The position numbers were made by a program, and so were the translations under genes. Below, one piece after another: positions 1,608 to 43,011 of a DNA stretch of 64,000 nucleotides. Each line of letters begins with the position of its first letter. Position 1 is the stretch's first letter. The notes under the pieces are model-generated. The model was given only the letters and a program-made list of their open reading frames with translations, searched no databases and was not told the origin of the DNA. Source of the stretch: Candidatus Uhrbacteria bacterium (lineage in GTDB: Bacteria > Patescibacteriota > Patescibacteriia > UBA9934); assembly GCA_018664485.1 (NCBI GenBank), contig JABJOE010000002.1, forward strand, positions 11,896-75,895. Reading direction: 5' to 3'.

Positions 1608-2828
1608 ATGACCTACCTTCCAACGATGTTGGCCCTGCTCGGATTCTCTACCGCGCATGCTGCGCGAAACGAGATCCCGGCCGAGCCTACCCCCATCACC
1701 TACACAGTCTTCATTGGCCCGAGCTATGAGCTTCAGGGTCAGCCCACCTTCACCAAGGGCGCCGCAACCTGCGAAGCGCTCGCAAGCCGTTTCGAGTCGG
1801 AAACGAACCCGGCGTCTATCGCCCTGTGCGGTATCGACGCTACGAAAGATGGGATCACTTCTGCACTCTCCGTAACGGTTTCAGCCCTCACGCCACATGA
1901 CAACCTCCTGGTTGTTTATCTGGGTCAGGGTTGGGAGACACAGGGCGGACACTACAAGCTGCTGCCTGCTGACTTCTCCCTTGAAAGTGGGATCGCCGGT
2001 CTCGAAGAATCAAGCATTGATTTCGAGCGTGACTTCAAGTGGACGCTTCGCAATGCATCCAACCAAGGTGGTGAAGTCGTAATCCTGATGGACGCCGTTC
2101 ACTCCGTTCACATTGAGCTCACGCCCTCCGGTGTAGAAGAGGGGGAGCCTTCCGGAATCTTGACGATCGGACCGACTGCAGCCAACTTCAATGATGGCCA
2201 AGATGCAGGGCTGCTGATCGTTTCTGCCACAGGAGGCGAGTACACCATCGATGACGGACTCTTCGGAGGTATCGTTGAAGATTCACTCGCAGGCCAGGCG
2301 GACGAAGACGGAGACGGCAAGCTCACCTTCGGGGAGCTCAAGCTGTTCGTGTTGTCGGAAAGTGCCACAAGGACAAAAGGCCAACAGAAAGGGCTGAGCG
2401 AAGGGCCGTGGATGCTGATGCATGAAGTGCATTTCATGGACCTTCCAGTCCCGAGTGCACCGAAGCGCCAGCGGAGCGGCTTGAATGTCGCGAGTCTGCG
2501 CAAGCCTGCGCTCTACAGCGGCATCGGTCTGTCCGTTGCCGGATGTGGGGTCACGATTGTCGGGCGAGTGATGGCAAACGGTGCCTACGCAGACATGGAC
2601 GCAGGTAACTACAGCGACCGCGACCAATACAACGACCTCGTGGGCACCTACGAAACTGGTGCCGGGCTCTACCCGGTTGGAATCGCAACCTGCACCACGG
2701 GTCTCGTACTCACCGCAACGAGCTTCATTCTCGGAAAAGGGAATGGTGACAAGAAGGTCACCCTCACGCCCGCCGTGACCGGAACCACCGGAGCCAACGC
2801 AACCGTCGGATTCACCGCTCGCTGGTGA
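1608..2828 (+). CDS. secreted EF-hand calcium-binding protein with a possible degenerate caspase-like (C14) core; GC-rich, likely horizontally acquired
   Basis: Signal peptide MTYLPTMLALLGFSTAHA. A canonical EF-hand loop DEDGDGKLTFGE is present. The segments LLVVYLGQGWE and VVILMDAVHS resemble the caspase His and Cys motifs with both catalytic residues replaced. A spot count gives about 58% GC against about 42% in the neighbouring genes. Confidence 0.55.
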   Translation: MTYLPTMLALLGFSTAHAARNEIPAEPTPITYTVFIGPSYELQGQPTFTKGAATCEALASRFESETNPASIALCGIDATKDGITSALSVTVSALTPHDNLLVVYLGQGWETQGGHYKLLPADFSLESGIAGLEESSIDFERDFKWTLRNASNQGGEVVILMDAVHSVHIELTPSGVEEGEPSGILTIGPTAANFNDGQDAGLLIVSATGGEYTIDDGLFGGIVEDSLAGQADEDGDGKLTFGELKLFVLSESATRTKGQQKGLSEGPWMLMHEVHFMDLPVPSAPKRQRSGLNVASLRKPALYSGIGLSVAGCGVTIVGRVMANGAYADMDAGNYSDRDQYNDLVGTYETGAGLYPVGIATCTTGLVLTATSFILGKGNGDKKVTLTPAVTGTTGANATVGFTARW

Positions 2829-5301: not shown

Positions 5302-8300
5302 CTATACTGTCTCGTCGTCGATATCACCCTCTAACTCGCTACTCGTATCTGCAATTTCTTGCTCATCGTCTACGGTGTCGGCGTCTACATCATCCTGCGC
5401 AACCTCCGTGACTTCATCTTGCACATCATCAACCTGAACGTCGGACTCCTCTTCTTCCTCAGAGACAACTTCTTCTTCGACTACATCTTCTTCGATTAAT
5501 TCCTCTTCAACAGCTTCCTCAACTATCTCTTCTTCCTGCTCGTCCTCAACTATTTCCTCAACCTCTTCCTCGTCCGTTGTCTCATCAATATCTTCTACAG
5601 AATCGACTATCTCTTCTTGCTCATCGTCGTTATCCTCATCCTCGGCCTCGTCTGTATCGACCGCCTCTGCCGCGTCATCACTGTCGTCAACTTCTGAGTC
5701 TGTGCCATCAAGTTGTTCGCTCTGACTGTCTTCCTCATCAATCTCCTCTTCCTCTTCAGGCTGTTCATCGTCAGTTTCCTCAGGCGCGTGATCTTTCAAA
5801 TATGCAATAACCATCCAATCAACAGTTGCAGTTGATCGAACTTCATCAATCGCCGACTCTCGAATGCTAAATCCTTCATTGTCACGATTAACAGCGTAAA
5901 GTGGACCGGTTGGCTGATCAGCCGTTAGGAAAACTCGATATGAAACGCCCTGAGCAATAATGTCGTTAAAGAGTGCGTCTTCAAATTCAAAGTTAACTGC
6001 AGCCGCACCATCTTTCAGATTTGCAGTTCCGGATAACTCAACTGTTTGCTGTCGAGAGAATGTCGCATATGTCTCCACATCTTCATTCTGATATGACCGA
6101 ACAACCTGCACCACGGCACCATTCGTTGTAATAGTTCCGTCTTGCGCGATGGACCATTGCTGACCAACTCCTGTGATTGCAGCGATGTTAATGATCTGAC
6201 CGGTGTTGAAATTAACCGTTCCAGACAGATCTAATGTTGATGCGTTGGCAAGATTTGAGATCAAACTGTCGGCAAGTGGCGCCTCGTCAACCGGACCGCC
6301 GTCATAATAGGAAGGTCGGACAAATACACTCACCGAACCTACCTCTCCTTGGAATGCTTCCATAGCGTAACCGAGAATTGGTCCCGCCTCCGTTGCTTTC
6401 ATTGCGTAACCGTCTTTACTTGAAGTTGTAAGTGGATCTCCGATTGAGATATCTCCATTTTCACCTGACACATAAGTTGGTACACGACCAGAAAGTGCTA
6501 CCGGTACATGGCCCTCAATATTCTCACCCGCCAAGAACCCAGGTTGTGTTGAAATGATACCTGCGATCCGTTGATCATATGTTATTCCGGTCGATCGCAT
6601 TACGTGCTCATCGTCATTTGCAAAGACAACTACTTCTCCCGGAGCAAGCGTCTGCGCTGACGGGAACATCTCTGCAAAGTCATATGATCCAGCACCCCAA
6701 CCAGAAGCATTGGTACGCATGAAGTCTCCACCAGCACCTGACGATCCGTCGTAGTAAATGTATGTATCAGTTTGAAGTGTTCCGCGGTCAGATGGGTACA
6801 GTCGACCAGCGATTGCCAGATCTCCATCGTTATTTACGAAAGCAACTTCATCCTCATCGTCATTTAATATAGAAAGTTTGTAGTCACTACTGTCAGTGAC
6901 ATCTGTAAACATACTCATTCCAATTGTACTATCGGTATCGCCCAACATTGTAAGCGCTGATGAGATAGCTACGTCCCCGTCATCGTCAGAAATGATTCCG
7001 ACACCATGCCATCCTGGCTGAATGAATACCTGGATCAATCCGGTACCTGAGCTATGAGCTTCAAGCGCACGACCAATCGTGTATCCGACTCCTGTAGCTT
7101 TCATTGCAACTCCGTTTACCGATGATAGCGCTACGTAATCACCTATCGAGATTGACCCACCGTCAGTATTTACGTTGACCGGAACCTGTCCTAGAAGAGC
7201 TACAGGTACATACCCGCCGTCATCTTGCCAATTGTCTGTCCAGTTACCAAGTGTATTTGGATTTACAGATAAAACACCAATCACCCCCGAAGGATCATTT
7301 GCAACAACAGCTTCTCCAGATGAGGTTAGAGAAATTACATCACCTCTGACGAAATCTGCGTATGTCCCATCAAATAACTCGGCGTAATCAGACCCTGCAG
7401 ACGCAGCGGTCACCCCTCCAGACCCATCACCCTCGATGGCTCCGATAGGTGTACCTGTAGCATCTCGAAATTCAATATAATCACAGGCAGTTGTCGGAGT
7501 GCTTCCCGATGCTGTAGAACAGGCTTGAATAGAAATTCCCTGCCTATTATCGTTATCGCCCCCATTTACAAATGACGCCATGAATGTACTTGTACTCGCG
7601 TCAACTACAAGTACCTGTGAAGAGCTCGTTCCGGCTCCATTAATTTCAAAGGCGTCCCACACAAATAGATCACCAGCTCCAGTCGCCACGTTTGCGGTAG
7701 TAGGAGTAGAGGTGGACTCGATGTGAGTTGCAGAGCCATAGAAATATCCGGCATAGTTATTCGTTCCTGCACTCGCCTGACCACGTACACCGTAACGAGT
7801 TGTCCCTTCAGTATTTGAACTAAAGTCTCCACCCATAGTTGTAGTCGCTGTTCCAGAACCTGCTGTAACATTTCCAAGCACACCTTTAGCCGTTGTAATC
7901 ACACCATTGAGTGGGATCACCTGACCGTGCACACCAATTACATTTCCAACCGTCGTAGCTGCAGCATCATTCGTTCCCTGCCCTAAAACACCAACAACCC
8001 TGTTGCCTACAGCAGTTCCGTTAGTGGACTGGTTTTCAGATACACCTTTGATCGCATACATCTCTTCGATCTGTCCGGATGATGACGTGTTAACCACCTC
8101 AGACAAAAAACCAATAGGCTCATGTAATTCTCCTCCACCACCTTCACTTACGTCTGACACAAGTCTGACATGTGACCCTACTGCCTGATACGTACCGGCA
8201 CCTCCACTTGCACCAGCAGATACGGTTCCTGAGGTATCAAATGCATACGTAACCCCTGGTGACGCTCCATAATCTGGCGCTGCAAAGTGCTCTATATTAC

Positions 8301-10182
8301 CTCCCTGGAAGCTCCATCTGTCTGCTGTCGTATATGAAATTGAACCCGTATCCCCTGCACTCGAGTACATATTAAAATCTGCGCTAGTACCCGCACCGTC
8401 ACCAAGACGCATCAAATTTGCAGACTCATCAATCGAAAATGCTGATGCCAAAACCGATGCACCTACAGAAAAATCATCAGTTGACGCGGTCGATACAAGT
8501 CCTGACCCTGAATTCAATGTTAAATTCCCACTTCCGCCAGATAGAACTTCCAGTGCTCCAGTAGACGCAAAAGTTGTATCATCGATAGTTAAAGTTCCGC
8601 TTGAATTTATTGTTAGAGCATCTCCTCCATCACCAATAATAGTTGCCTGATCAAAAGTTAGATCACCACCATCGATATCCAGAAGCATGTCGCCTGTAGT
8701 CTGGATCTCACCATCCATATAGTTTGTTGAGAAAGCTCCAGCCGTAAATCCAATATCTGAGAACACCTCTCCGTCAGCCTCAATGCGGAACACGTTATTA
8801 TCAGTAGATCCGAAGTTTGTTTGGATATTAAAAATGTCTGCCGTATCAGTTGTTTCAGTTACATCAATAGACAATGCCATTCCCGCATCATTAGTAAAGT
8901 TCCCACCAACCAGATCCAAAATATTACCGGCAGTTAGCACGTCTGCTGTAATAACGGCAGCACTAGCAGTAGTCGCCTCGGAATCAATATCAAAGGCAGG
9001 TGCCGTCGCTGTATTGCTATCGATCAATAGCACTGACCCTGTTGCCGCAGTATTATTCTGAGTAATAGCAAGCAATGACCCTGTTTCATTTAGAGTTCCA
9101 CCGTTCGCAGTAGTACTCGCTCCTAAAATCGATACAAACGGACCAGATACATTTACAGTGGTAGAACCACCGTCTGACGTTAGATCGCGTACAATATCCA
9201 ACCCCATTCCAGTATATGCAGTTGTACCGGATGTATATGTCGCTGAATGATCTGCGCGTATCAATTTTCCGGAAGTAAGAGCAGAAGACGTCGAACCAAC
9301 ATCGATACCAATACCCGTTGTGAGCGCATCGAGCGACCAGCTCATTGCAGTCGCAGTTGTCAGACTATCTGCCAACAAAGCGATAGCTGGAGCAGTAGTT
9401 CCATTGTATGTGTATTGAATCTGTCTTGAGTCGTTTATATTCAGGAACTCCGTACCTGCATCCTGCAAAATAAAATCTCCAGTACTTTGAAGGTCGACTA
9501 TAAGATCAAGCCCGGCTCCATCTAGTGAAAACTCTAAATCAGTCGCATCAACATTCAAAATGGTGTCGCTACCGTTACTATAAACTTGGTCTAAATTAAA
9601 GTCTGCAGAGCTTAGACCATCAAGAGATTCGGCATTCAGCGCGTATGGAACGGAGTCAACCGCCTTTCTTGGCGTAAGAGTCTCACCTCCAATATAAATC
9701 TGTAAAAACGTAGATGCGTTGTCAGCGAATATCGAATCACCAATCGCAGCCCACGGTGAAGCATCACCAGTGTCACCCATTCGTGCAGTAAACAATCCGT
9801 CAGTAAGCGTTACGGTTCGAGCAGTCGTAGATGCTGGTGTGTCCGAGTCACAAGTAGCTGAAGAGTTTGACCAAAGACAAGTTCCACCCGTAACTGCAGA
9901 GTAAATCTCGAACTTCATGCTAGCGGTTGCATCTGTAACTGGCACACCATTAGAATCAAGAACTCTTCCCTGATATGAAACTGTATTTGGAGGTGAAACA
10001 GCTTGAGCGTCCTGAGGGCCATTAAACGTTACCCCAAACCCCATTGAAATCCCAAGCAACATCACAAGCAATGCTGTGATGCGCGTAAACATCTGTCGTA
10101 ATGATTTCACTCTGTAACTACTCATAAGGTTGGGACTTGGTCCCGCGTGGGCTGATACCCACACGTCTGATTTCTCAGACAT
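5302..10182 (-). CDS. giant (1626 aa) secreted/surface protein, Thr/Ser/Gly-rich beta-rich body with internal repeats and a poly-acidic tail of roughly 190 aa (D/E-rich)
   Basis: N-terminal signal/anchor (alternative start M20 at 10125: MSSYRVKSLRQMFTRITALLVMLLGISMG). Two internal repeats of about 60 aa are present (GQVPVNVNTDGGSISIGDYVAL..AMKATGVGYTIGRALEAH and GRVPTYVSGENGDISIGDPLTT..AMKATEAGPILGYAMEAF). The C-terminus is almost pure D/E (EEEEEIDEEDSQ...DDETV). Confidence 0.7.
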   Translation of the reverse strand: MSEKSDVWVSAHAGPSPNLMSSYRVKSLRQMFTRITALLVMLLGISMGFGVTFNGPQDAQAVSPPNTVSYQGRVLDSNGVPVTDATASMKFEIYSAVTGGTCLWSNSSATCDSDTPASTTARTVTLTDGLFTARMGDTGDASPWAAIGDSIFADNASTFLQIYIGGETLTPRKAVDSVPYALNAESLDGLSSADFNLDQVYSNGSDTILNVDATDLEFSLDGAGLDLIVDLQSTGDFILQDAGTEFLNINDSRQIQYTYNGTTAPAIALLADSLTTATAMSWSLDALTTGIGIDVGSTSSALTSGKLIRADHSATYTSGTTAYTGMGLDIVRDLTSDGGSTTVNVSGPFVSILGASTTANGGTLNETGSLLAITQNNTAATGSVLLIDSNTATAPAFDIDSEATTASAAVITADVLTAGNILDLVGGNFTNDAGMALSIDVTETTDTADIFNIQTNFGSTDNNVFRIEADGEVFSDIGFTAGAFSTNYMDGEIQTTGDMLLDIDGGDLTFDQATIIGDGGDALTINSSGTLTIDDTTFASTGALEVLSGGSGNLTLNSGSGLVSTASTDDFSVGASVLASAFSIDESANLMRLGDGAGTSADFNMYSSAGDTGSISYTTADRWSFQGGNIEHFAAPDYGASPGVTYAFDTSGTVSAGASGGAGTYQAVGSHVRLVSDVSEGGGGELHEPIGFLSEVVNTSSSGQIEEMYAIKGVSENQSTNGTAVGNRVVGVLGQGTNDAAATTVGNVIGVHGQVIPLNGVITTAKGVLGNVTAGSGTATTTMGGDFSSNTEGTTRYGVRGQASAGTNNYAGYFYGSATHIESTSTPTTANVATGAGDLFVWDAFEINGAGTSSSQVLVVDASTSTFMASFVNGGDNDNRQGISIQACSTASGSTPTTACDYIEFRDATGTPIGAIEGDGSGGVTAASAGSDYAELFDGTYADFVRGDVISLTSSGEAVVANDPSGVIGVLSVNPNTLGNWTDNWQDDGGYVPVALLGQVPVNVNTDGGSISIGDYVALSSVNGVAMKATGVGYTIGRALEAHSSGTGLIQVFIQPGWHGVGIISDDDGDVAISSALTMLGDTDSTIGMSMFTDVTDSSDYKLSILNDDEDEVAFVNNDGDLAIAGRLYPSDRGTLQTDTYIYYDGSSGAGGDFMRTNASGWGAGSYDFAEMFPSAQTLAPGEVVVFANDDEHVMRSTGITYDQRIAGIISTQPGFLAGENIEGHVPVALSGRVPTYVSGENGDISIGDPLTTSSKDGYAMKATEAGPILGYAMEAFQGEVGSVSVFVRPSYYDGGPVDEAPLADSLISNLANASTLDLSGTVNFNTGQIINIAAITGVGQQWSIAQDGTITTNGAVVQVVRSYQNEDVETYATFSRQQTVELSGTANLKDGAAAVNFEFEDALFNDIIAQGVSYRVFLTADQPTGPLYAVNRDNEGFSIRESAIDEVRSTATVDWMVIAYLKDHAPEETDDEQPEEEEEIDEEDSQSEQLDGTDSEVDDSDDAAEAVDTDEAEDEDNDDEQEEIVDSVEDIDETTDEEEVEEIVEDEQEEEIVEEAVEEELIEEDVVEEEVVSEEEEESDVQVDDVQDEVTEVAQDDVDADTVDDEQEIADTSSELEGDIDDETV

Positions 10183-10193
10183 GTGCTCACCAA

Positions 10194-12851
10194 CTATTCC
10201 TCGTCTTTCTTTTCGTTCTCCATATGTACGTCAACAGAAATAAGTTCAGGTTCTTTTTTCTCCGAATAATCAATTGGTCGAACCTCTGTTTTTTCAAATC
10301 CAGGCTTCTCGAACGTTACATAATACGTATTTGGTCCCGCCATAAAGGCGTAATGACCCTTTCCGTCTGTAAGTGTTGATTCGATTAGCTTGTTATATTT
10401 TGGCTCAAATAGACGAACCACAGTATTTGGAAGTGCTGCCTTGTCTGTCATTGTTCGAACGATTCCCCAACCTTTCTGCTTTTTGATGCGATGAGTCAGA
10501 ATACCCGTTGCCGCATACATGAATGCGTGTATGAAAACGATTACAAAACTCAGAACAGTCAGCTGAATAAATGCCACAACGATCGCAACTACCAGCCCTG
10601 CTATTGCAAGAACATGCTGGAAGATTCGAAGGAAGCGCATCATCACCAATCGTTTTGGCGTATGTAGTTTTTCAGCTTGATCAGGGTCCACTGGAATATT
10701 GGGCGTAAGAAGTACCTGATTTGCATCTACCTCAATCACACCACCCGTATATACATCAAGATAATTTCCATCTTGACTCTTTCCAGCCATGTAATCACTT
10801 GGGAATACGAATCCGGCTTTCGCCACCTTCATCGAATACCGACCCTCTTTCACCTTAAAGAAGAACCTACCCTCTTTGTCAGTTACTCGTGTCTGAACGA
10901 TCTTCCCCTGCTCACTATACAAACGAACGATAGCAAGGTCGACGGGCAATTTTGTAATACCGTTGTAGACTAGTCCGAATTTTTGTCGTCTTCGTCGTGC
11001 GAAGAACAGAATCGGCGCTGTAAATAGATAGCGCAGATAGTTCAACAAGTTAAATGATGTGGCAAGAACTCCAACGCTTGTCGCTGCGACAACGACGGTT
11101 ACCGGTGACGCCACTTCTGCGGCCACCTGAACCTCTGGGATTTCTCTTACCTCATTTACAACATCACTTATATCCGACACAAATGCTTGTGCTACATCAA
11201 CTGCCGTACCAACCACAGCAACGACTGCTATGCTCGATTCGTCAGACTCCGTATCCACAACCGGAGCCTCTATAGGCTCGAGTTCAATACTCGGATTCAA
11301 AATTCCATTTGAAACGAAAATTTGTTTCTCTGCATCGATGTATCCGGATTTTCCAGCCGTCACAAGATAAGAACCGTTTGGCACATACCAAGCGAATGCT
11401 CCATCTTGCAAGACTGTAATGGGATTTGACTGATCGTAGTCAGTTGCATCCCACTGATGTAACGAGTCTCCGCCTTCATAAACTATGACAATTGCGCCGT
11501 CAACCGGCGTACGCTCGTCGTCCAAAAGCTGGTAAACAACCCCTAAACTCTGAACGTTCCAATCGTAATAGTCAGTTATCACTTCGTCGTCACCATATGT
11601 AACAACAACCGTCGCTACAGTATCTTCAGACGCAGTTTCAACGACGCCTGCGTAGACATCGTCATCCGTTTGTGACAATTCGTATTGATTATCTCCAATA
11701 ACTAGGATAACCGTCGTGACATCATCTGAGTCGGCAACCTCAACAGATACAACTACCTCTGTGTCTGGTAATACATCAATATCTTCATCCTCCCCGAGGA
11801 AAACACTACCGTCATTACTGCTTACGGTTGTGTCGAAAGATCTTGAGTTGTCTGATCCCGATCCTGAATCACCAGAGTCATCATCGTCTGTCGATGAATC
11901 ATCTTCTGTGCCAGGGTCTTCGTCATCAGTATCGTCATCTGGATCATCGGAGTCTCCTCCCGATCCGCCGCCGCCTCCTCCGCCATCACCTGAATCGCCT
12001 CCGGAGTCTCCTCCGGAATCTCCGTCTCCGTCTCCACCACCGCCGTCGTCACCAGAATCTCCTGGGTCATCTTCTGAATCATCACCTGGGTCATCATCGG
12101 TGTCATCTCCAGGTTCCTCTTCATCATCACCTGGATCTTCTTCGGTGTCGTCACCGGGATCATCTTCATCGTCACCCGGATCATCATCGTCACCATCTCC
12201 GTCATCACCGGAATCTCCGCCATCGTCCCCTCCGCCGCCGCCTCCTCCACCTCCGCCTCCACCTCCACCTCCTGATTCTGGAATGGTAGCTGAAACCGTT
12301 CCGTCATCATTTGATGCGATTGGCAAAACTATCGTTCCGCCCATTCCTGAGGTACCGGCAACTGTTAGAAAGTATGAAGCTGCGTTTGATGGGTTTGTGA
12401 TCTGAAACGCTCCCGTTCCAGAGGATGTTGCGTTCGTTCCTATTTCCACAATAACTTCACTCGCACTTGCAACCGCTCCGCCGTCACCGGCGCATATTGT
12501 AAAAGTTACAAGGCCTGAAGATATTGTCACAGATACTTCCTCTGATCCTGTGCAGTTTGCCGCAGTTGTCAGGTCAACCCCATCGTCTGATATGTCGATG
12601 GAGTCTTCTACTATAGAAGACGTTGTGAAACTCGATGGAAAATCGATTGTAAAGGTCTCCCCTTCGTCGATCGCGTCTGAGACGGTCATGACGATCTTGT
12701 GATTGGATGCTTGTGAAACCTCAATTGATGACGGCTGGTCATACGCTGACGTAAGCGTTGTTGCCGCCAATGTTAAAGACGCCCAAGGCCCTAGAAGGGC
12801 GCTCAAGGTTATAAGGACGATCCAGAAAATGGCACGAAATGTGCGAATCAT
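10194..12851 (-). CDS. large surface protein with poly-Gly and acidic D/G/P-rich low-complexity linkers, C-terminal TM helices and two carboxypeptidase-regulatory-like domains
   Basis: The ORF runs to 12926; the probable start is M26 (MIRTFRAIFWIVLITLSALLGPWASLTLA, signal-like). It carries a 15-residue Gly run and a DDPGDDxxxDPGDD repeat. Two C-terminal segments match the CarbopepD_reg pattern (TDKEGRFFFKVKEGRYSMKVAKAGF; TDGKGHYAFMAGPNTYYVTFEKPGF), following transmembrane helices. Confidence 0.65.
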   Translation of the reverse strand: MIRTFRAIFWIVLITLSALLGPWASLTLAATTLTSAYDQPSSIEVSQASNHKIVMTVSDAIDEGETFTIDFPSSFTTSSIVEDSIDISDDGVDLTTAANCTGSEEVSVTISSGLVTFTICAGDGGAVASASEVIVEIGTNATSSGTGAFQITNPSNAASYFLTVAGTSGMGGTIVLPIASNDDGTVSATIPESGGGGGGGGGGGGGGGDDGGDSGDDGDGDDDDPGDDEDDPGDDTEEDPGDDEEEPGDDTDDDPGDDSEDDPGDSGDDGGGGDGDGDSGGDSGGDSGDGGGGGGGSGGDSDDPDDDTDDEDPGTEDDSSTDDDDSGDSGSGSDNSRSFDTTVSSNDGSVFLGEDEDIDVLPDTEVVVSVEVADSDDVTTVILVIGDNQYELSQTDDDVYAGVVETASEDTVATVVVTYGDDEVITDYYDWNVQSLGVVYQLLDDERTPVDGAIVIVYEGGDSLHQWDATDYDQSNPITVLQDGAFAWYVPNGSYLVTAGKSGYIDAEKQIFVSNGILNPSIELEPIEAPVVDTESDESSIAVVAVVGTAVDVAQAFVSDISDVVNEVREIPEVQVAAEVASPVTVVVAATSVGVLATSFNLLNYLRYLFTAPILFFARRRRQKFGLVYNGITKLPVDLAIVRLYSEQGKIVQTRVTDKEGRFFFKVKEGRYSMKVAKAGFVFPSDYMAGKSQDGNYLDVYTGGVIEVDANQVLLTPNIPVDPDQAEKLHTPKRLVMMRFLRIFQHVLAIAGLVVAIVVAFIQLTVLSFVIVFIHAFMYAATGILTHRIKKQKGWGIVRTMTDKAALPNTVVRLFEPKYNKLIESTLTDGKGHYAFMAGPNTYYVTFEKPGFEKTEVRPIDYSEKKEPELISVDVHMENEKKDEE

Positions 12852-12891
12852 AGTTTGCGAACAACTCCAGATATTTATGAAGCTGCTCAGA

Positions 12892-13770
12892 TTACGGACC
12901 GCGGGAAAATCTATGCATCCAAGCAAGGAGACCTAGAATAACGAGCGCGAAGAGTGCGCCTTTCCACGGAAAGATGATGATGTGTTGACGAGCATGAAAC
13001 ACTTCTCCGTCTTCCCATGGCTGAACTTCAAGGTCGACAGTGAAAAGACCAATAGCAAACGGTTGCTTTGTGTCTTCTTCCTGTTCTCCCCAATATGTTG
13101 TGAAGGTGCGTGTCTGCCCGCTCACAGCTCGTGAGCCCTCCACATTGACGCTATTTAAAGCGACTTCCCGGCCAAATAGGCTGGTAATACGCATCGATCC
13201 TTGTGGGATCACGACGCGTTCCCCCTCATTGCGAACACTTAGATGACCTATCACCGGCAAAGACCAACCGCCAGACGATTCAATTGTGGCATCAAGCCAA
13301 TAAACTGATTCATAGACGGGTCCAACAGTAATAAATCCTAGCGAAACAATCGCTGTCTGTACGCCAATACCCTGCGATGCCTGGTTTTGACGAGTAACCT
13401 TTACTCCGAATGTGATGACTTGAGGCTCCAAATCATCAGGTGGAGTGAAAGCTAGGTCGATCGTTCCCTGTGTGTTTGCAGCAAGCGAGAGCACGCCATC
13501 ATCAATAGAAATCCATGATGCAATTTCCTCATCCAATTTGGAGAAAGAAATTTCCTCGTACGTCTCACCAATATGTACTTGTATAATCTCGAGTTCGTAT
13601 GTCGCCTCGTCATTTTGATCATTCACCAAAATAAGTTGAGCGTCACCGGTTTCTCCTGCTGTAATTGTGACGTCGAAACTTTCCGGCCACAGCTCTTCTG
13701 CTAAACCAATATTGGGGGGAAGTAAAAGCAGTAGAGCGAAGAGGCATATGTACTTAGTAATTCCCGACAT
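12892..13770 (-). CDS. secreted protein with N-terminal signal peptide and C-terminal TM anchor (hypothetical surface protein)
   Basis: ORF to 13803; the likely start is M12 (MSGITKYICLFALLLLLPPNIGLA). C-terminal hydrophobic anchor ALFALVILGLLAWMHRFSRGP. Co-oriented with the surface operon, overlapping it by a few nucleotides. Confidence 0.55.
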   Translation of the reverse strand: MSGITKYICLFALLLLLPPNIGLAEELWPESFDVTITAGETGDAQLILVNDQNDEATYELEIIQVHIGETYEEISFSKLDEEIASWISIDDGVLSLAANTQGTIDLAFTPPDDLEPQVITFGVKVTRQNQASQGIGVQTAIVSLGFITVGPVYESVYWLDATIESSGGWSLPVIGHLSVRNEGERVVIPQGSMRITSLFGREVALNSVNVEGSRAVSGQTRTFTTYWGEQEEDTKQPFAIGLFTVDLEVQPWEDGEVFHARQHIIIFPWKGALFALVILGLLAWMHRFSRGP

Positions 13771-14674
13771 ACAGCACGGTAAGTACGTGGGAATAACTTC
13801 CATCCGTTTGAGAGCTGGTCATTCCAGCTTTAAGCGTAATGAAGTTTCTACTTGCAAAGATACTCGCCGACTCTGTTGCGATTGCTGCAAGTGTGGTTGT
13901 GATCGCCGTGTCTTGCGTGTCAAAAGTTGATGACGTAATGGATGAATCCGATGCTCGCGCACCGTATTCAGTTGATCCTGCAGTCACAGCTCCGTCACTT
14001 ACGTCTGTAATTGTGTTTGATCCATCTATTAGATCTGTATCTTCGCTGATGTAGATATCAAACCCGGAATCAACATCGCCTGATGCCTCCCAAGCAACAA
14101 TTGATGTCGCTACTGAGGAACCTGTAAGGGTTCCGAGGGAAAGTGATGAGGCATTTAGCCGATAAACTACGTCATTGCTACCGTCTATAGTTAATGAGTC
14201 ACCTGAAAGCGAGTCAATAATCAAGTCGGAGCCTGACACTGATGTGATCTTTCCTATAGCTGTTGATTGGCTTGCGCCCTCATCTTGTACAATCGCTACC
14301 ATCTGATCAGCACTAAATCCACTTGTGCTTGCAATGGTTACAGTTGTGCCAGACAGAGCACTTGAACCTACTTGGCTACTTCGATCTTGCAGATAGAGAT
14401 TAAAATCTACGACCCGATCATAGATACCACCTCTATGGCCTGCATCAAAGGAATAACTCGTTGATGTCGAATTACCTTCTGCCACACCACCAATTGAATC
14501 GCGGAGTTGATATGACGCTGATGAGCTGGAATCGCTCCCGCCAGCATTAATCACATCCCAATCAATTCGATAATTGGTTGATGACATTTGGGCATTTGCC
14601 ACCTGAGTTATAAGGAGCAATACAAATGCACATAAAGTAAGGGGGAATGCAGTGCGCACATTCATACACAGCAA
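13754..14674 (-). CDS. secreted Ser/Thr-rich beta-strand protein (first gene of the surface-protein operon)
   Basis: Signal peptide MLCMNVRTAFPLTLCAFVLLLITQVANA. The mature N-terminus is SSTNYRIDWDVINAGGSDSSSSASYQLRDSIGG, followed by an S/T/D-rich body. No known domain was recognised. Confidence 0.55.
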   Translation of the reverse strand: MLCMNVRTAFPLTLCAFVLLLITQVANAQMSSTNYRIDWDVINAGGSDSSSSASYQLRDSIGGVAEGNSTSTSYSFDAGHRGGIYDRVVDFNLYLQDRSSQVGSSALSGTTVTIASTSGFSADQMVAIVQDEGASQSTAIGKITSVSGSDLIIDSLSGDSLTIDGSNDVVYRLNASSLSLGTLTGSSVATSIVAWEASGDVDSGFDIYISEDTDLIDGSNTITDVSDGAVTAGSTEYGARASDSSITSSTFDTQDTAITTTLAAIATESASIFASRNFITLKAGMTSSQTDGSYSHVLTVLYVGNY

Positions 14675-14763
14675 TTATAAGTTGAACACATATTTGCGTC
14701 AAAGAGTGAGGGGATTATAATTTGGCCAATATTAGAGGAATCACGCTTAAAAATATGGCTAAT

Positions 14764-14816
14764 TGTGGATAAATAATTAAGAGACCCAATAGAATAAGGG
14801 TATTAGCTGTGGATAA
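14764..14816. promoter_or_regulatory. two perfect DnaA boxes (TGTGGATAA) 44 bp apart in a 1.4-kb AT-rich intergenic region
   Basis: TGTGGATAA at 14764-14772 and 14808-14816, same orientation; the 9-mer matches the consensus TTATCCACA in reverse complement. Confidence 0.5.
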
Positions 14817-15302
14817 ACTGTGAATTGCTTGAATTATACTTGTCCAGTCTAGCGTAGACAGTGTTACACGTGAATCATTCTACCTGTTTTTTTCATACAT
14901 CACCCCACCCCTCTATTCAGCCACATCTAAAGACTGCTTCGAGGATCATTCTGCACATTGTCTGTGTGGTGGCTTGTTCAAATATCAGCCACCACCCTAT
15001 CAAGTAGCTCGCACGAGCCACTGAGTACAAAAAATGATAACTATCAGCTCGTACTTCTCGCGCCAGCGCCAATGTAGAACGGCAACCCACCCGTGATACA
15101 CAGCAACTCTAAGATCTATTGAATGCTGTCGTTCGTCAATAGATATACTTAGATGCACAAACAATCAAATGCGGTTATTTGGCAAATATCAAAGGCACAC
15201 ACGAATAAACAAGCATATCCAGCAAACCAGAAACTCCGTTTCACGTGAAAAAGCCGTACCACCCCTATATAGGTAGGACCCGCTGCAATCTAGACTGATA
15301 AA

Positions 15303-15330
15303 CAAAAAAGAACCGACTGTCGGTTCAAAT
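15303..15330 (-). terminator. Rho-independent terminator (minus strand) closing the tRNA-Arg trailer region
   Basis: Hairpin gaaccgac/gtcggttc followed on the minus strand by TTTTTTG. Confidence 0.45.
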
Positions 15331-15492
15331 ATATCTCCACAAGTTATTAACACCCATTATCGGGCAAAATATGGCTATTATAGCGATTTTTTAACTAAAT
15401 GACTGTAACAACCCCAGTATCAGGTACATAATGTTGATAACTCTTAGCGCTAAGACTCTCCCCCTTCATACAATTACTTTGTCTTGAAAATA

Positions 15493-15836
15493 CTGCAGTT
15501 ACATTTTCTGCTAGGCACAGCCAACCCTCTGTAAAACCGACCTCATTGGTCGACGTCGAGCACCGCAATAGCGAAAAGTAGGTTGCCCCTATAACTGACT
15601 CCAGAGACGCTACTATTTTCTTTCAATGCGGTGTTGTCTGATCTTGGGAACGCTGCAATTTTATTTTTCTACTAGGCGCAGCAAGGACAGCAGAAAACTG
15701 AGCCAATAGCCATCATCAACACAAAGGATCGACAACAAAACTGACCATTGAGACGCCGTGCTCTTGTTTTAATACAAGGCGCTGAGAGTAGTGAAGTAAG
15801 TCGACCTGATTGGTCGACGTCGAGCAACGCATCAGC
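15493..15836. repeat. bipartite direct repeats (A1/B1 at 15493-15572; A2/B2 at 15654-15683 and 15800-15836) containing a perfect 10-bp palindrome TCGACGTCGA
   Basis: A1 ctgcagttacattttctgctaggcacagc matches A2 ctgcaattttatttttctactaggcgcagc. B1 gacctcattggtcgacgtcgagcaccgca matches B2 gacctgattggtcgacgtcgagcaacgca. A perfect 14-bp inverted repeat (15741-15754 and 15863-15876) brackets B2 and abuts the tRNA CCA end. Confidence 0.6.
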
Positions 15837-15876
15837 AACGACGTAGTAAAGCGAGAGGACAAGTCTCAATGGTCAG

Positions 15877-15953
15877 TGGAGGCCTCGGCGGGAGTCGAAC
15901 CCACAACCCTCTCCTTAGGACGGAGTTGCTCTATCCAATTGAGCTACGAGGCC
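15877..15953 (-). tRNA. tRNA-Arg (anticodon CCU), CCA encoded
   Basis: Manual fold: acceptor GGCCTCG/CGAGGCC; anticodon loop gtCCTaa; T-arm gtggg-ttcgact-cccgc; the 3' end reads ...GCC-T-CCA. Confidence 0.8.
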
Positions 15954-16068
15954 ATTTTCTTACATGCCATTATGTGTCGTAAAATACTACACCAAATCTA
16001 GCACGCTATACCGAGTGTATATGAGGCACGAAACGATGTCCATCTAAATCTGATAGAATGTAATTCCT

Positions 16069-17172
16069 ATGAATGAATTACTATATATTTTTGCAGGTGT
16101 AGCAGCCGGTGCCGTCATCGTCTACCTTACAAAACGAGGCTCTTCCCAGAATGATGATGTGTCGCAAAACGTAAACCAGCAATTGCAAACACTTCGTGAA
16201 GAGCTTCAAAGAACCAACAGTGATCAAAGACGTGAAGTTCAAGAACAGCTGCAACGCGTTGAAGATCAGCTCGGGAAAGGGATGCGTCACTCACACGATT
16301 CGATGCAACAACAGTTCCAACACACGTCAAAGATCGTTCAAGACGTCACGCAACGCCTCACAGAGCTCGATAAAACCAATAAGCAGGTCCTAGACTTTTC
16401 TTCACAGCTACAGAACCTACAAAACATTTTAAAAAATCCAAAACAGCGCGGTGTGCTTGGCGAGTACTGGCTTGAAACACTTCTTGGAAATGTTCTACCA
16501 GCTTCAAGCTACAAGATGCAATACGAAGTAGGGAAAGATGAAAAAACTTCTCAAAAACTTATCGCCGACGCTGCAATTTTCATACGAGATCAGGTTATTC
16601 CAATCGATGCTAAGTTCACGCTTGAGAACTATAATCGAATGATGCAAGAACATGACTCAGAGAGAAGAGGAAAAATTGAAAAGGCTTTCAAATCAGACGT
16701 AAAGAAACGAATCGACGAAACAAGTAAGTATATAAGGCCAGAAATGGGTACAATGAACTTTGCTTTCATGTTCATTCCAGCAGAAGGGGTTTATTACAAT
16801 CTACTTAATGCCGAAGTCGGATCGGGAATCAACAGTACAAACCTCGTTCAATACGCTTTTGAAAAACACGTAATGCTCGTGTCGCCAACTTCTTTCTACG
16901 CATACCTACAAACAGTGTTAATGGGACTTCGAGAATTAAAACTGGAAGAATCAACGACAGAAATTATCAAAAGAGTAGGGGAGCTTGGAAAACACATTGG
17001 AGCCTATCAGGATTATCATGAACGACTTGGAAAGAATCTAGGGACTGTCGTAAATCAATACAATCAATCAAGTGGGGAACTCCGAAAAGTAAGTAAGGAT
17101 GTAAATAAGATCACATCTGGTGAAATGGTCTTGATAGAAACTGAAGACATATCAAAGCCAGAAATCGAGTAA
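16069..17172 (+). CDS. rmuC: DNA recombination protein RmuC
   Basis: N-terminal TM helix, a long coiled coil (QQLQTLREELQRTNSDQRREVQEQLQRVEDQL), then a conserved RmuC nuclease-like C-terminal domain. Confidence 0.75.
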   Translation: MNELLYIFAGVAAGAVIVYLTKRGSSQNDDVSQNVNQQLQTLREELQRTNSDQRREVQEQLQRVEDQLGKGMRHSHDSMQQQFQHTSKIVQDVTQRLTELDKTNKQVLDFSSQLQNLQNILKNPKQRGVLGEYWLETLLGNVLPASSYKMQYEVGKDEKTSQKLIADAAIFIRDQVIPIDAKFTLENYNRMMQEHDSERRGKIEKAFKSDVKKRIDETSKYIRPEMGTMNFAFMFIPAEGVYYNLLNAEVGSGINSTNLVQYAFEKHVMLVSPTSFYAYLQTVLMGLRELKLEESTTEIIKRVGELGKHIGAYQDYHERLGKNLGTVVNQYNQSSGELRKVSKDVNKITSGEMVLIETEDISKPEIE

Positions 17173-24182: not shown

Positions 24183-24429
24183 GGTGCACTCTTTTTGAAG
24201 TGGACTCGTAAGTCCGGGTTGTTGCTCTATCCAAGGTTGGGGTCGAGACGGCGCAATTCTGCCACAGCTAGCGAATCCTGTCAAGGGATTTGTGCAGGTA
24301 TCGGAAAAGTGGCCATAAAAGTAAAAGAAATATTTATATCTAATCTAAGCCAATATATAAGTCCACAGGCACCGGGCGTTACACAATGATGTGTCGTATA
24401 ATGCTAATATAACGTTTCTATACCTATAT

Positions 24430-25347
24430 ATGGCAACAAAATCAGTCATACAAAAGCATATTCGTCGATATCTTGAGTACCTTGAAGTTGAGCGAGGTCG
24501 CTCAGCACGTACCGTCCGTAACTACGACTTCTACCTCACGCGCTTTGCGACATGGGCAGAATTCCCAAACCCATCAAAAATCGATAAAGAGCTCCTTCGC
24601 CGATATCGCCTTCACCTCAATCGAGACATAGAAGGGCGCGACGAACCGACTCTTAAAAAGAGCACTCAGAATTATCATCTAATTGCTCTTCGTAACTTTC
24701 TTAAATATCTTTCACGCAACGACATAAAAACAATGTCGCCTGATAAGATCGAGTTAGCTAAAACCGGAACACGAAAAGTTGAGTTCCTCGAAGAAGATGA
24801 ACTGCGACGAATGTTCGGAGTGCTCGAAGATGCTGACGGGCTCATCGGTAAGCGAGACCGCGCTATGGTATACATGCTTTTTTCAACCGGCCTTCGTGTT
24901 TCAGAGTTGGCGAATTTAAAAATCGACCAAGTAAATTTGAAGCGTGAAGAGTTCACAATAAAGGGGAAGGGGTCTAAACATCGTGTTGTGTTTGTGTCGG
25001 AGAAAGCACGCAAGGCAGTGAAAGAATATCTCGACGCACGTGGTGACACGAGCCCATATATGTTTGTCGGTCACGATCGCGCAAAGGCGTCGCGCGAAAA
25101 AATGCCTGTGTCGCCCCGCACAGTGCAACGAACTATCGAACGCTACGCCGCGGAAGCCGGAATCACAAAACGCATCACACCTCACACTCTGCGTCACACA
25201 TTCGCAACCGACCTTCTGCAAAATGGTGCAGACATAAGGTCAGTGCAAGCGATGCTCGGCCACGAGTCAATTACTACAACTCAAATCTACACCCACGTCA
25301 CCGACCGTAAACTAAAAGCTGTACACAAAAAGTTTCATAATAAATAA
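24430..25347 (+). CDS. site-specific tyrosine recombinase, XerC/XerD family
   Basis: C-terminal catalytic region LRHTFATDLLQNGADIRSVQAMLGHESITTTQIYTHV with the R..HxxR..Y signature. N-terminal core-binding domain present. ORF from 24391; the likely start is MATKSVIQKH. Confidence 0.85.
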   Translation: MATKSVIQKHIRRYLEYLEVERGRSARTVRNYDFYLTRFATWAEFPNPSKIDKELLRRYRLHLNRDIEGRDEPTLKKSTQNYHLIALRNFLKYLSRNDIKTMSPDKIELAKTGTRKVEFLEEDELRRMFGVLEDADGLIGKRDRAMVYMLFSTGLRVSELANLKIDQVNLKREEFTIKGKGSKHRVVFVSEKARKAVKEYLDARGDTSPYMFVGHDRAKASREKMPVSPRTVQRTIERYAAEAGITKRITPHTLRHTFATDLLQNGADIRSVQAMLGHESITTTQIYTHVTDRKLKAVHKKFHNK

Positions 25348-25780: not shown

Positions 25781-26953
25781 ATGATTGACGATATAAAAAA
25801 ATACTACGCGTTTCGATCACTTATAAAGAGGTTCATCGTTCCAGTACTGGTTGTCTTCATGGTCCAAAGTGGGCTTACCATTGAGCAGATCGCAATAATT
25901 GGAGTAGTGACTGGGGTAATCGGATTCGTCTTGGAGATACCTAGTGGAGCCGTCGCCGACACTCTCGGGCATAAAAGAACACTCATTCTTTCAATGCTCG
26001 GTCAGGCTCTTGCAATGGGACTTTACCTTGGTGGATCGTTTTGGTGGATACTCGCAGCGTCAGTTATGTACTGGGGAGCCGGCACATTGATGACCGGAAC
26101 TATGCAGGCGCTTTTCTTCGAGCGATTGCAAGAACTTGGTCGAGAGAAAGAACATCAAAAGCTAAGCGGTAGGGCGCGATCAATATCCCAAGCATTCAGC
26201 ATTATTGCGATGATTCTCTCGGGCCTCGCATATGCGTGGCATTGGTGGCTACCATTTATAGTCGGTGTGGCCCAATTCTTGCTTGCCGGATTAATTATTT
26301 CTTTCTTTCATCAAGCAAAAAAACAAACCAGCGTCGCACGCTTCGAACCCAAGGCCATCTTGTCACATATTAAACTCGGATTTGCTGAAGTTAGAAAGTC
26401 GTCGAAACTTTTTTGGCTTACAATATTCAACTCACTAATTCTAGGGTTAGTATTCGGGTCAGCAGAATTTCACCAAGTACTACTAGAAAATTCCGGCCTT
26501 GCCGTAGCGATGTTTGGAGCCGTATATGCAGTAAAGCGAATAGTTGGAGTTGTGGTTCCGCCATTCGTTCATCGCATTACGAATAAACTTTCTGTACCGT
26601 TGTTTTGTGGAGCGTCTGGAATATTCGTGTCAGCAATACTCATACTGGTACTTGCTGTTGGCAGCCCATGGGCAATGGCCGCTCTGCTCGGTATCTCCTC
26701 AGCGCCCTACATAGCATTGACCGTTGCAGGAAATGACTTTAAAAATCAACTCATCAAAAGCTCGTCGCGCGCGACGATTCTGTCTATAAGTAATCTCGTT
26801 CAGCAGATATTCTCACTGACATTCATCGGCTCAATAGGGCTGGCAATAGCATTTGCAGAACTACCATTACTCTATGCTGCGTGGGGAATCGCACTAGCAC
26901 TTATCATCGGAATCCTCATGCCACCATTCATTCGAGCCTACCGCACGGCTTAA
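25781..26953 (+). CDS. MFS transporter
   Basis: Twelve predicted TM helices; conserved MFS loop GAVADTLGHKRTL between TM2 and TM3. Confidence 0.7.
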   Translation: MIDDIKKYYAFRSLIKRFIVPVLVVFMVQSGLTIEQIAIIGVVTGVIGFVLEIPSGAVADTLGHKRTLILSMLGQALAMGLYLGGSFWWILAASVMYWGAGTLMTGTMQALFFERLQELGREKEHQKLSGRARSISQAFSIIAMILSGLAYAWHWWLPFIVGVAQFLLAGLIISFFHQAKKQTSVARFEPKAILSHIKLGFAEVRKSSKLFWLTIFNSLILGLVFGSAEFHQVLLENSGLAVAMFGAVYAVKRIVGVVVPPFVHRITNKLSVPLFCGASGIFVSAILILVLAVGSPWAMAALLGISSAPYIALTVAGNDFKNQLIKSSSRATILSISNLVQQIFSLTFIGSIGLAIAFAELPLLYAAWGIALALIIGILMPPFIRAYRTA

Positions 26954-27008: not shown

Positions 27009-27027
27009 TGGGGCGGCTAACGGGAAT
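27009..27027. repeat. 19-bp direct duplicate of the tRNA-His 3' end (tggggcggctaacgggaat)
   Basis: Identical to 27171-27189 (the 3' end of tRNA-His on the minus strand). Each copy is preceded by a ctccc-NNNN-gggag hairpin, but with the loop inverted (gaaa versus tttc). Confidence 0.6.
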
Positions 27028-27170: not shown

Positions 27171-27246
27171 TGGGGCGGCTAACGGGAATCGAACCCGTAA
27201 TACTAGTACCACAAACTAGTGTGATAACCGTTTCACCATAGCCGCC
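27171..27246 (-). tRNA. tRNA-His (anticodon GUG) with G-1, CCA encoded
   Basis: Manual fold: G-1 pairs with C73; acceptor GCGGCTA/TAGCCGC; anticodon stem ctagt/actag with loop ttGTGgt; T-arm acggg-ttcgatt-cccgt. Confidence 0.8.
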
Positions 27247-27427
27247 ATGCTCTGCTCGCTAGCTATTTGGCGATCTATCGTTTCCAGCCTGTGCGCGTCG
27301 CTCTCCGTACGTTATCAGTACGCTTCGCTTTCGTGCTCGGCCGTCAAAGAGATCTCATCCAAACATCTACGCTCGCTTTTGTGTGTTGTGCGTACCGGCT
27401 TCAGAAGTAGCAAACCTATGAAGTCAG

Positions 27428-27504
27428 TGGTGCGCCCGGTAGGACTCGAACCTACAACCTTGAGGTTAGAACCCTCCTGCTCTATCCGGTTGAGCTACAG
27501 GCGC
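27428..27504 (-). tRNA. tRNA-Arg (anticodon UCU), CCA encoded
   Basis: Manual fold: acceptor GCGCCTG/CGGGCGC (one G-U pair); anticodon loop gtTCTaa; T-arm gtagg-ttcgagt-cctac. Confidence 0.8.
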
Positions 27505-32168: not shown

Positions 32169-32363
32169 CCGGATCCTCAGAACACCACCTCGTACAGCCT
32201 ACAAAACTCTATTTATCTTCCGAGTTGAAGATGTGTTTCAGAAATTGGCTGGCATCTTCGTGGGTAACGTTAGTACATCATCCAGAAGGCGCTTGGTAAC
32301 TTTTTGTAGACATATCATCCTGGAAGCTTGTTCGAGGGGGTGTTCTGGGGTTATCATTCTGCC

Positions 32364-33599: not shown

Positions 33600-33670
33600 T
33601 GTGGATAAAGTACCGATTATCCAAAAGTTATCCACAACAGAACACGCTAAACACACAAATTTTATCCACA
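33600..33670. promoter_or_regulatory. cluster of DnaA boxes (three perfect TTATCCACA/TGTGGATAA plus one 8/9 match) within 71 bp
   Basis: TGTGGATAA at 33600-33608, TTATCCAAA at 33616-33624, TTATCCACA at 33627-33635 and TTATCCACA at 33662-33670; located 40-110 bp upstream of the ncRNA promoter. Confidence 0.6.
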
Positions 33671-41112: not shown

Positions 41113-41430
41113 TTAGTCTCGAGCGAGAGCCGGTTCTTCGGCCACGAATACTGCGAGGCCAGGTCGATCTTGGGCAGCGCTATGAAGCACGGCAACGAGC
41201 TGAAGAATATCCGGTTCAGAACGCAGAAAGTCTCCAAGGATGTTGTTGACCTTCATAATAATCAGCCAGTCCGGACACTCCGGGTCGCCGACCATCGCCC
41301 TGATGCGGTTCAGCGAAGCCGCCAACGGATGAACACCGTATATAAGCCGGTCCCACGTATCACTGACGGCACCTAGGACAGAGTGTTGAAACACAGCGCT
41401 CACACTTGTACGAATCAAAGCAGAGTTCAT
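41113..41430 (-). CDS. hypothetical 105-aa protein, paralog B of a tandem GC-rich cassette
   Basis: Same length and about 35% amino-acid identity to paralog A; its own promoter-like repeat lies upstream and the GC hairpin downstream. Confidence 0.55.
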   Translation of the reverse strand: MNSALIRTSVSAVFQHSVLGAVSDTWDRLIYGVHPLAASLNRIRAMVGDPECPDWLIIMKVNNILGDFLRSEPDILQLVAVLHSAAQDRPGLAVFVAEEPALARD

Positions 41431-41469
41431 TTCAGGTCCTTGTTGGGGTGCAGAGCTACTATAGCTCCC

Positions 41470-41537
41470 GTCTATGTAGACACCTCAACCTACTCCAAAA
41501 AGACGCCCTCGTCAATATGCAATGCGCCCGCGTGATT
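41470..41537. repeat. R2: promoter-like head of the cassette repeat upstream of paralog B
   Basis: The minus strand reads ATTGACG-17 nt-TAGGTT; it matches 40999-41068. Confidence 0.55.
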
Positions 41538-41709
41538 GACAAAAACCCCAGCAAACTCTACACTCCGCGCGAAGAAAGAACTAGAGCTGACTTATTTGAG
41601 GTCAGTTTTAGGCACAGGGAAAAATGCCGAGGAGGCGTACCATTAGTACGTTGACGAGTCATTTAACTCTGTAACAACAAAATGATCCAAATAAGTAAGT
41701 TACATTTTT

Positions 41710-42996: not shown

Positions 42997-43011
42997 AAGA
43001 CTTAATCCGGG

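Follow-up and report, generated by a model that had tools for sequence, protein, structure and literature searches.

Structured RNAs that are co-transcribed with tRNAs are known from several systems, among them the 3′ETS-leuZ trailer of E. coli, the stable RNAs of the phage T4 tRNA cluster and the tRNA-pre-miRNA hairpins of MHV68. In the CPR/Patescibacteria, whose genomes are tiny, almost no non-coding RNAs have been described beyond the universal ones. Elsewhere, palindromic repeats of the ERIC and Correia type act as RNA hairpins on neighbouring transcripts; Correia hairpins are cleaved by RNase III, and ERIC copies are found at the 3′ ends of Yersinia genes (PMC10969869). The element described here, which we call hp1, can be compared with both kinds of system. 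As in the tRNA-linked RNAs, a structured sequence lies immediately 3′ of a tRNA, from which it could be released by tRNA 3′ processing; unlike those RNAs, the hp element is also found away from tRNAs. With ERIC, Correia (CREE) and SPRITE elements it shares the form of an imperfect palindrome of 100–200 bp that is present in several copies in transcribed intergenic DNA and is predicted to give long RNA hairpins, some of them at gene 3′ ends or in leaders, where they would alter transcript fate; in these systems, too, copies cluster and decay. However, those repeats have conserved terminal inverted repeats and similar copies within a genome, whereas the termini of the hp family differ wholly between copies, the apical module alone is conserved and the copies are old. 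Moreover, one hp copy has been retained at an orthologous site through compensatory changes, and no target-site duplication or transposase was found.

The locus is part of a 64-kb stretch of a Candidatus Uhrbacteria (CPR/Patescibacteria) genome, referred to below as the window. The gene for tRNA-Arg(CCU), with CCA encoded, occupies positions 15877–15953 of the minus strand (ARAGORN; 57.7 bits with the Rfam tRNA model). It is divergent from rmuC (16069–17172), with a gap of 115 nt, and is separated from the next minus-strand gene (13754–14674) by 1.2 kb in which no credible ORF was found. A consensus scan located a promoter-like site, TGGACA-17-TACACT, at 16014–16042 (minus strand), from which transcription would proceed across the tRNA into hp1. 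On the same strand, the consensus terminator scan found a small terminator-like hairpin with a T-run at 15310–15326. The initial annotation had let the whole unit end at this Rho-independent terminator; it is present as a putative distal terminator but is not needed, since a U-rich run, UUUUGUUGU (15731–15740, minus strand), directly follows hp1 on the tRNA strand.

As judged from folding, orthologues and covariation, hp1 is an imperfect long hairpin of 138 nt and about 50 pairs (15740–15877, minus strand), whose first paired base is the final A of the tRNA (15877). Its basal helix is made of the 5′ arm ACUGACCAUUGAGAC on the tRNA strand (15863–15877) and the 3′ arm GUCUCAAUGGUCAGU (15740–15754). 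A repeat search gave 100% complementarity over 15 nt and a spacing of 108 nt, which confirms both the perfect inverted repeat previously noticed at the tRNA 3′ end and the distance between its arms; the stem has 15 rather than 14 bp, since the A of CCA pairs too. The basal 15-mer has two sites only in the 64 kb. The predicted energy is −55.4 kcal/mol (z −7.6) for the minus strand and −68.1 kcal/mol (z −9.5) for the plus strand, with none of 200 shuffled sequences folding as well in either case, and in a sliding 140-nt fold scan of the window hp1 ties for the most extreme fold.

The apical module of hp1 (15794–15824, minus strand), delimited by sequence, an apex alignment and an nhmmer profile, is the core of a repeat called B2 and contains the stem-loop GUCGACC-AAUCA-GGUCGAC and, on either side of it, the internal loop CUCGAC / CUUACU. 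No other part of the hairpin family is as conserved. The palindrome TCGACGTCGA, which occurs twice and had been taken for a possible protein-binding array, turns out to be the apical stem with the adjoining internal loop; in relatives it is not kept as such, GTCGTAC, ACGTAC and CCAAC variants being found instead. An SRP, 6S or K-turn reading was rejected on inspection of the apex by eye: the apex lacks a GNRA/GGAA loop, a central bubble and a 3-nt bulge, and its loop is symmetric.

Contigs with identical RmuC are identical across the region, and the comparison was therefore made with species of 55–78% RmuC identity (72–78% among those that retain the hairpin at this site, and 55% for L023; related loci are designated by L numbers). 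Relatives keep the synteny of the surface-protein operon, tRNA-Arg(CCU), rmuC and rpsT. A hairpin of 115–138 nt, located 0–9 nt after CCA, is present in L106, L011, L013, L104, L016, L100, L108 and L110, and its stem sequence differs in each of these species. In L023, the hairpin sits after the second tRNA of an Arg-Ala pair, and in L104 the basal pairing is lost. Every orthologue tested folds with a z of −6 or lower. The U-run after the hairpin is clear in the window, L108, L100 and L023, weak in L106 and L011, and absent in L013, L016 and L110. At exactly this position, a hairpin of 43 nt is found in L099 and an ordinary short terminator in L101 and L109; many further lineages with tRNA-Arg/rmuC synteny have no hairpin.

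The RNAalifold structure of the five closest species contains 49 pairs, 35 of which have changed on both sides, against 14.3 expected. In this alignment 87.7% of cells are paired, compared with 69% in shuffles and 34–44% in slid-structure controls, and none of 500 shuffles reached any of five covariation measures. In helix 1, the basal stem of the initial annotation, 12 of the 14 pairs are compensatory, both sides having changed among the five species. The proposed check of stem conservation and covariation in relatives thus strongly favours a structure, and it is borne out that the tRNA 3′ end is joined to a structured element that is conserved. A covariance model built from five sequences (R1) detected L016 (E 2e-8), L108 (E 4e-5) and L023 (E 2e-3), all three of which had been left out of its construction. 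Unlike the hairpin, the rest of the trailer (14875–15740) has no detectable similarity to relatives. These comparisons date the position of hp1 against the CCA end of tRNA-Arg(CCU) to before the divergence of at least nine related species. Because pairing is kept by compensatory substitutions, hp1 would be selected as a folded single strand; the combination of a conserved non-palindromic centre, freely varying yet paired arms and long residence likewise points to such selection, and away from a TIR-type transposon or simple palindrome correction.

Downstream of hp1, parts of the element recur. Repeat B (35 nt, 89% identity) is found at 15538–15572 (B1) and 15802–15836 (B2), the 17-mer TTGGTCGACGTCGAGCA being confined to these two copies, and repeat A at 15494–15523 (A1) and 15654–15683 (A2). 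The B copies are 264 bp apart, and not 150 bp as given in the initial annotation, where A1/B1 was regarded as a second copy in a working unit. Instead, B1 and A1 (15494–15572, minus strand; repeat search) make up a decayed paralogue whose apex is still recognisable (nhmmer apex profile, E 0.004) and which has no significant fold: the region 15440–15745 folds no better than shuffles on the two strands (z −0.01 and +0.75), and a second working hairpin is ruled out by these z values of about 0. A2 (minus strand) appears from its sequence to be a remnant of the 3′-arm segment of a decayed tandem copy, and shares with the hp2 element described below the A-like motif CUGUGCCUA..AAA..ACUG. The sequence GCGUCUCUGGAGUCAG (15595–15610, minus strand), a paralogue of the hp1 3′ basal arm and the end of a decayed copy, is also present in L011, L013 and L104. 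The B and A motifs adjoin each other within a single hairpin in L106 and L104, and decayed second units are likewise seen in L100, L104, L011 and L013. We read the downstream A/B repeats as decayed tandem copies of the hp1 element, with no second working unit among them. Same-strain contigs from other samples (L003–L009) terminate inside the trailer, at about 15085, 15169, 15651 and 15814; disruption of short-read assembly by hp1 and its repeat fragments is probably the reason.

Two further full members of the family are present in the window. The first, hp2 (41585–41701, minus strand), was identified by the apex profile and folding. Its apex, CUCGUCAACGUAC-N5-GUACGCCUCCUCG, agrees with that of the tRNA-linked hairpin of another species, L100, at 25 of 25 fixed positions. 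It is located between a promoter-like site, TTGACA-17-TACACT (41536–41564, plus strand), and the tig start codon (41710), and is followed by U5. Owing to this location, hp2 would be transcribed as the plus strand, as a 5′ leader and in the family orientation opposite to that of hp1. The second, hp3 (49048–49172, plus strand, 125 nt), was first flagged by the fold scan at 49041–49180 and was also matched by the apex profile; it begins at the dnaN stop codon (dnaN, 47907–49049) and is convergent with a small minus-strand gene (49331–49642).

Since MAFFT and RNAalifold could not align the divergent arms across the whole family and R1 misses hp3, an nhmmer profile of the apex, built from nine members outside the window, was used instead. 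Its matches in the window were B2 (E 2e-4), B1 (E 4e-3), the hp3 apex in the predicted orientation (E 0.05) and 41626–41658 (E 0.13), the last being the apex of hp2. Both hp2 and hp3 are recovered by the fold scan, by this window-free profile and by apex identity. In their termini, hp1, hp2 and hp3 are unrelated (ACTGACCATTGAG, AACTTACTTATTTGG and GGAAATTATCCAGG, respectively), and the copies are strongly diverged rather than near-identical. Altogether, full copies in the 64 kb number three and decayed fragments at least two; they occur in both orientations, and their intergenic settings are unrelated. Inverted repeats at 32175–32350 and 25997–26144 were considered as well and belong to a different kind of element. 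In view of the opposite orientation and leader position of hp2, the family has no single positional role, and the earlier notion of a tRNA-specific trailer has to give way, as homologous hairpins stand upstream of tig and after dnaN.

Searches for the element elsewhere were negative. No further copies were found in the relatives' loci (ca. 90 kb) or in all comparison loci (ca. 716 kb), and blastn against 50,697 phage records gave no match. Three viral contigs contain the 17-mer GCTCGACGTCGACCAAT, which is roughly the chance expectation for a collection of that size; none of them carries the hairpin by the model, and the conserved apex pattern is absent. On these searches of phage records and viral contigs, we reject a phage origin of the element. 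At gathering scores, Rfam 15 matched only tRNAs, and nothing credible was obtained at 14600–16100 with E up to 10 or in the hp2/hp3 region (41300–49400) with E up to 5. AsdA, the antisense RNA of dnaA, was matched below threshold at 46734–46814 (minus strand), with 31 bits where the gathering score is 52; the site falls within the coding sequence of dnaA, and conservation of that gene is the most likely source of the match, rather than an antisense RNA. The best reading of the sequence comparisons is that hp1 is one copy of an undescribed small family of long-hairpin intergenic elements, absent from Rfam, whose predicted architecture is a conserved apical module atop a 45–60-bp stem of freely variable sequence.

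As to function, we tentatively prefer, with a probability of about 0.45, the view that hp1 is a member of this family that serves as the 3′ terminator or processing hairpin of the tRNA-Arg(CCU) transcript. With the final base of the tRNA as the start of the hairpin, every primary transcript of the tRNA would have to enter it, and hp1 would set the 3′ boundary of this transcript as an unusually long intrinsic-terminator or processing hairpin, here combined with a U-run, and possibly as an RNase III-type substrate. It would in this way separate a strongly expressed tRNA from the downstream parS site and surface-protein operon. The role is favoured by the position at the CCA end, by the U-run and by the ordinary terminators that replace the hairpin in sister species; such a terminator (L101 and L109), or a 43-nt hairpin (L099), at the same position suggests an equivalent role. 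Two further tRNAs of the window (Cys and Arg-UCU) also have hairpins that begin at CCA. It is from position, fold, orthology, covariation and family membership, which are observed, that we infer termination or processing and the relevant strand.

Compared with the intrinsic terminators that follow tRNAs, hp1 is alike in starting at CCA, in being followed by a U-run in this genome and in occupying the position at which sister species bear ordinary terminators. It differs in that its stem is about five times longer than usual, that it has conserved internal loops and a conserved apex, and that most orthologues lack a U-run, a clear one being present in just four of ten. In place of a short stem (about 5–14 bp) with a small loop and no conserved internal motif, hp1 has about 50 pairs over 138 nt, and the consensus terminator scan did not call it. 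Stems of 50–60 bp with a conserved non-palindromic apical module far exceed the needs of termination. Two further points count against termination or processing: the better folding of the strand antisense to the tRNA is opposite to what selection on a tRNA-sense RNA predicts, and compensatory change could in principle also come from quasi-palindrome correction at the DNA level.

The strand asymmetry has to be weighed against the promoters. The G-rich strand, which is the plus strand at hp1 and hp2 and the minus strand at hp3, folds as well as or better than the other in almost every family member (z −9.5 vs. −7.6 for the window hairpin, −8.7 vs. −6.0 for L100, −14.1 vs. −11.5 for L016, −6.85 vs. 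−3.0 for hp3 and −4.85 vs. −1.95 for hp2), also having the lower free energy. L100 would form nine G·U pairs on the G-rich strand and none on the other; isolated arm mismatches, read in the tRNA sense, comprise 20 A·C against 8 G·T, again in favour of the G-rich strand; and the conserved apex of L100, hp2 and hp3 in G orientation, 5′-GAGGA / 3′-AGCAG, amounts to two tandem G·A pairs. Standard deamination biases predict a sign opposite to that of the observed asymmetry. Together with the good promoter that hp2 has for its G-rich strand, and with a conserved centre and covarying arms as are typical of protein-binding RNAs, these features would fit a functional RNA made from the G-rich strand (plus at hp1, antisense and convergent to the tRNA), which would be a multi-copy structured small RNA or UTR element with a protein-binding apex. 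At hp1 such an RNA could also pair with the tRNA trailer. We nevertheless consider it rather unlikely. No σ70-like promoter was found on the opposite strand within 130 nt in any of ten hp1 orthologues (about one expected), which rejects a dedicated antisense promoter for hp1; the only plus-strand candidate near hp1 in the window, at 15405–15432, is weak and 300 nt away by the consensus scan; and the transcript would meet the tRNA gene head-on, without a terminator. Because of the promoter-like site of the tRNA, transcription of hp1 in the non-G orientation would be unavoidable. In the five closest hp1 orthologues, G·U and A·C counts are about equal on both strands, and in neither orientation do the three copies have consistent contexts. 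With the same rather low odds, the family would be a new class of multi-copy structured RNA of CPR bacteria, in which a long covarying stem of the G-rich strand presents to a dedicated protein an apical module made of the tandem G·A pairs beside an ACGUAC-loop-GUACGU stem-loop, and the hp1 RNA, as an antisense transcript of the tRNA-Arg(CCU) trailer, could govern read-through or the maturation of the tRNA 3′ end.

Other readings place the function in DNA or dispense with it. A selfish palindromic DNA repeat (MITE-, ERIC- or REPIN-like) without host function, the pairing of which is kept by template switching in quasi-palindromes or by gene conversion between the arms, would agree with the number of copies in the window, their unrelated contexts and both orientations, and with the decaying tandem copies seen beside the tRNA here and in L100, L104 and L013. 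ERIC and Correia elements are also of matching size (PMC10969869). In the relative L105, a gene for a Y1 transposase is found close to the locus; none was seen among the window genes with Pfam annotation or those scanned. As in MITEs, dispersed non-coding intergenic copies of 100–400 bp are present, but hp1, hp2 and hp3 do not have conserved terminal inverted repeats: between copies the centre is conserved and the ends are not, which is the reverse of what is expected for such elements. No target-site duplication or other flanking direct repeat is visible beside the three hairpins, although old copies could have lost theirs; the GTAG and CGTC tags of REP/REPIN elements are absent, and copies within the genome are highly diverged. 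The ca. 90 kb of relatives' loci have no extra copies, the same site is held across species at the RmuC identities given above, and the internal loop, asymmetric and non-palindromic, is conserved where palindrome correction would have removed it. On balance, a selfish repeat is unlikely.

It is improbable that the hairpin acts as a cruciform or single-stranded DNA hairpin recognised in replication, segregation or recombination of this origin-proximal region, even though the three copies are within ca. 35 kb of dnaA/dnaN, a parS-like site lies 500 bp from hp1, both strands fold and polarity might follow replication direction if oriC were left of hp3. The next gene is rmuC, the product of which is thought to limit rearrangements at inverted repeats. 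Yet the better-folding strand at hp1 and hp2 is the lagging nascent sequence and not the normally exposed lagging-strand template, three copies are too few for an orientation rule to be judged, tRNA-Arg/rmuC synteny occurs in many lineages without the hairpin, and we know of no system that uses such DNA-level hairpin sites. The arm-type sites of an old att site, or the binding-site array for a dimeric regulator at TCGACGTCGA, that the initial annotation considered are very improbable. Integration classically targets tRNA 3′ ends, and the palindrome does occur twice; however, the 3′ end of tRNA-Arg (26 nt, up to three mismatches) is found once only in the 64 kb and so has no direct repeat, the nearest integrase gene adjoins another tRNA cluster at a distance of 8.5 kb, the element is orthologous and its locus syntenic in many species, and the palindrome is explained by the apical stem and loop and not conserved as such. 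Integron attC sites are likewise imperfect palindromes (60–140 bp) with conserved structure, variable sequence and strand-specific folding, but the basal arms of hp1 lack the R″/R′ core (RYYYAAC / GTTRRRY), there are no cassettes and no integron integrase, and attC conserves its base where the hp family conserves its centre; the neighbours of hp1 are housekeeping genes and not an attC cassette array.

Several observations concern the surroundings of the locus. A parS-like palindrome, CGTTTCACGTGAAAAA, lies outside the hairpin at 15237–15252 and agrees in 14 of 16 positions with TGTTNCACGTGAAACA, which we take to be the parS consensus; TTTCACGTGAAA is present once only in the 64 kb. The same intergenic region has a parS-like palindrome in L099, L100, L019, L022, L102, L104, L106, L108 and L109, perfect in several of them, and a centromere-like site beside the tRNA-Arg(CCU)/rmuC locus seems to be conserved across many Patescibacteria. 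In relatives, a NUDIX hydrolase gene is located between the trailer and the surface-protein operon (L011, 4915–5328; L013, 5015–5491; L106, 2127–2606; L104, 2009–2245, where only a C-terminal remnant is left). Comparison of window positions 14675–15300 with the relatives gave no trace of a NUDIX pseudogene in the 1.4-kb gap; the gene is missing here. The window includes dnaA (45996–47633) and dnaN, and cumulative GC skew is lowest near 50 kb, so the region of the replication origin falls within it. DnaA boxes, three perfect and one near-perfect, cluster at 33600–33670, and two more are found at 14764 and 14808 (14764–14816), upstream of the surface-protein operon.

Other tRNA trailers of the window were also inspected. 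An exact copy of the final 18 nt of tRNA-His (TTCCCGTTAGCCGCCCCA) stands 162 bp downstream (27009–27026 and 27171–27188, minus strand), and each of the two is followed by a similar terminator hairpin (CTCCCGAAAGGGAG); the arrangement resembles a scar left at tRNA-His by a small integration or excision event. An integrase gene (24391–25347) is 1.7 kb from this repeat; in the segment 24391–25749 the tyrosine integrase is followed by a small protein of the bAvd / 23S-rRNA-intervening-sequence type. The latter gene may be an accessory gene of a diversity-generating retroelement, of which the very large surface proteins encoded at 5302–12926 would be candidate targets. The trailer of tRNA-Arg(UCU) (27385–27431, minus strand) forms a 35-nt hairpin, CUGACUUCAUAGG...CUUCUGAAGCCGG, that closely matches the basal arms of the L011 tRNA-Arg(CCU) hairpin (UUGACUUCACAAGG...CUUCUGAAGUCAAGCCG), including a 1x1 internal loop. 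This suggests an L011-type element without its interior, the long form having arisen by expansion or the short one by deletion; a search for orthologues of this trailer via the neighbouring xth gene reached a genome with different synteny. In tRNA-Cys (55660–55709), the stem of a 48-nt hairpin includes the discriminator base and CCA (UCCAUCGAGCU...AGCUCGAUGGA), and a canonical terminator comes only ca. 80 nt after it.

Comparable structures were seen in relatives. In L019, a more distant Uhrbacteria locus (1950–2750, minus strand), a structured unit of ca. 120 nt is repeated in tandem about 2.5 times after tRNA-Arg(CCU), and a ca. 120-nt unit again about 2.5–3 times after tRNA-Ala(CGC). Both arrays begin precisely at CCA (ccaTGAACC...), and a perfect parS lies between them; they belong to a different sequence family with the same tRNA-end association. 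Other hairpins of 105–150 nt with z from −7.5 to −10.7 are located at 4308–4420 in L109 and 5279–5428 in L019. One such hairpin lies between convergent rmuC and rpsT with A- and U-tracts on both sides, which is the shape of a bidirectional terminator, and another follows a plus-strand gene. Very long terminator-like hairpins may be common in the clade of hp1.

Since hp1 is held by compensatory evolution across a genus-level clade and the apex matches at 25 of 25 positions between paralogous loci of different species, the hp family is a concrete candidate for an element, of RNA or single-strand DNA, that is specific to this lineage and has a particular binding partner. If hp1 is only an over-long, repeat-derived terminator, this is a useful annotation and nothing more; if the RNA of the G-rich strand is the functional molecule, the finding would be of higher interest. 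The element also illustrates a way in which reduced genomes can recruit palindromic intergenic repeats as tRNA or gene boundaries.
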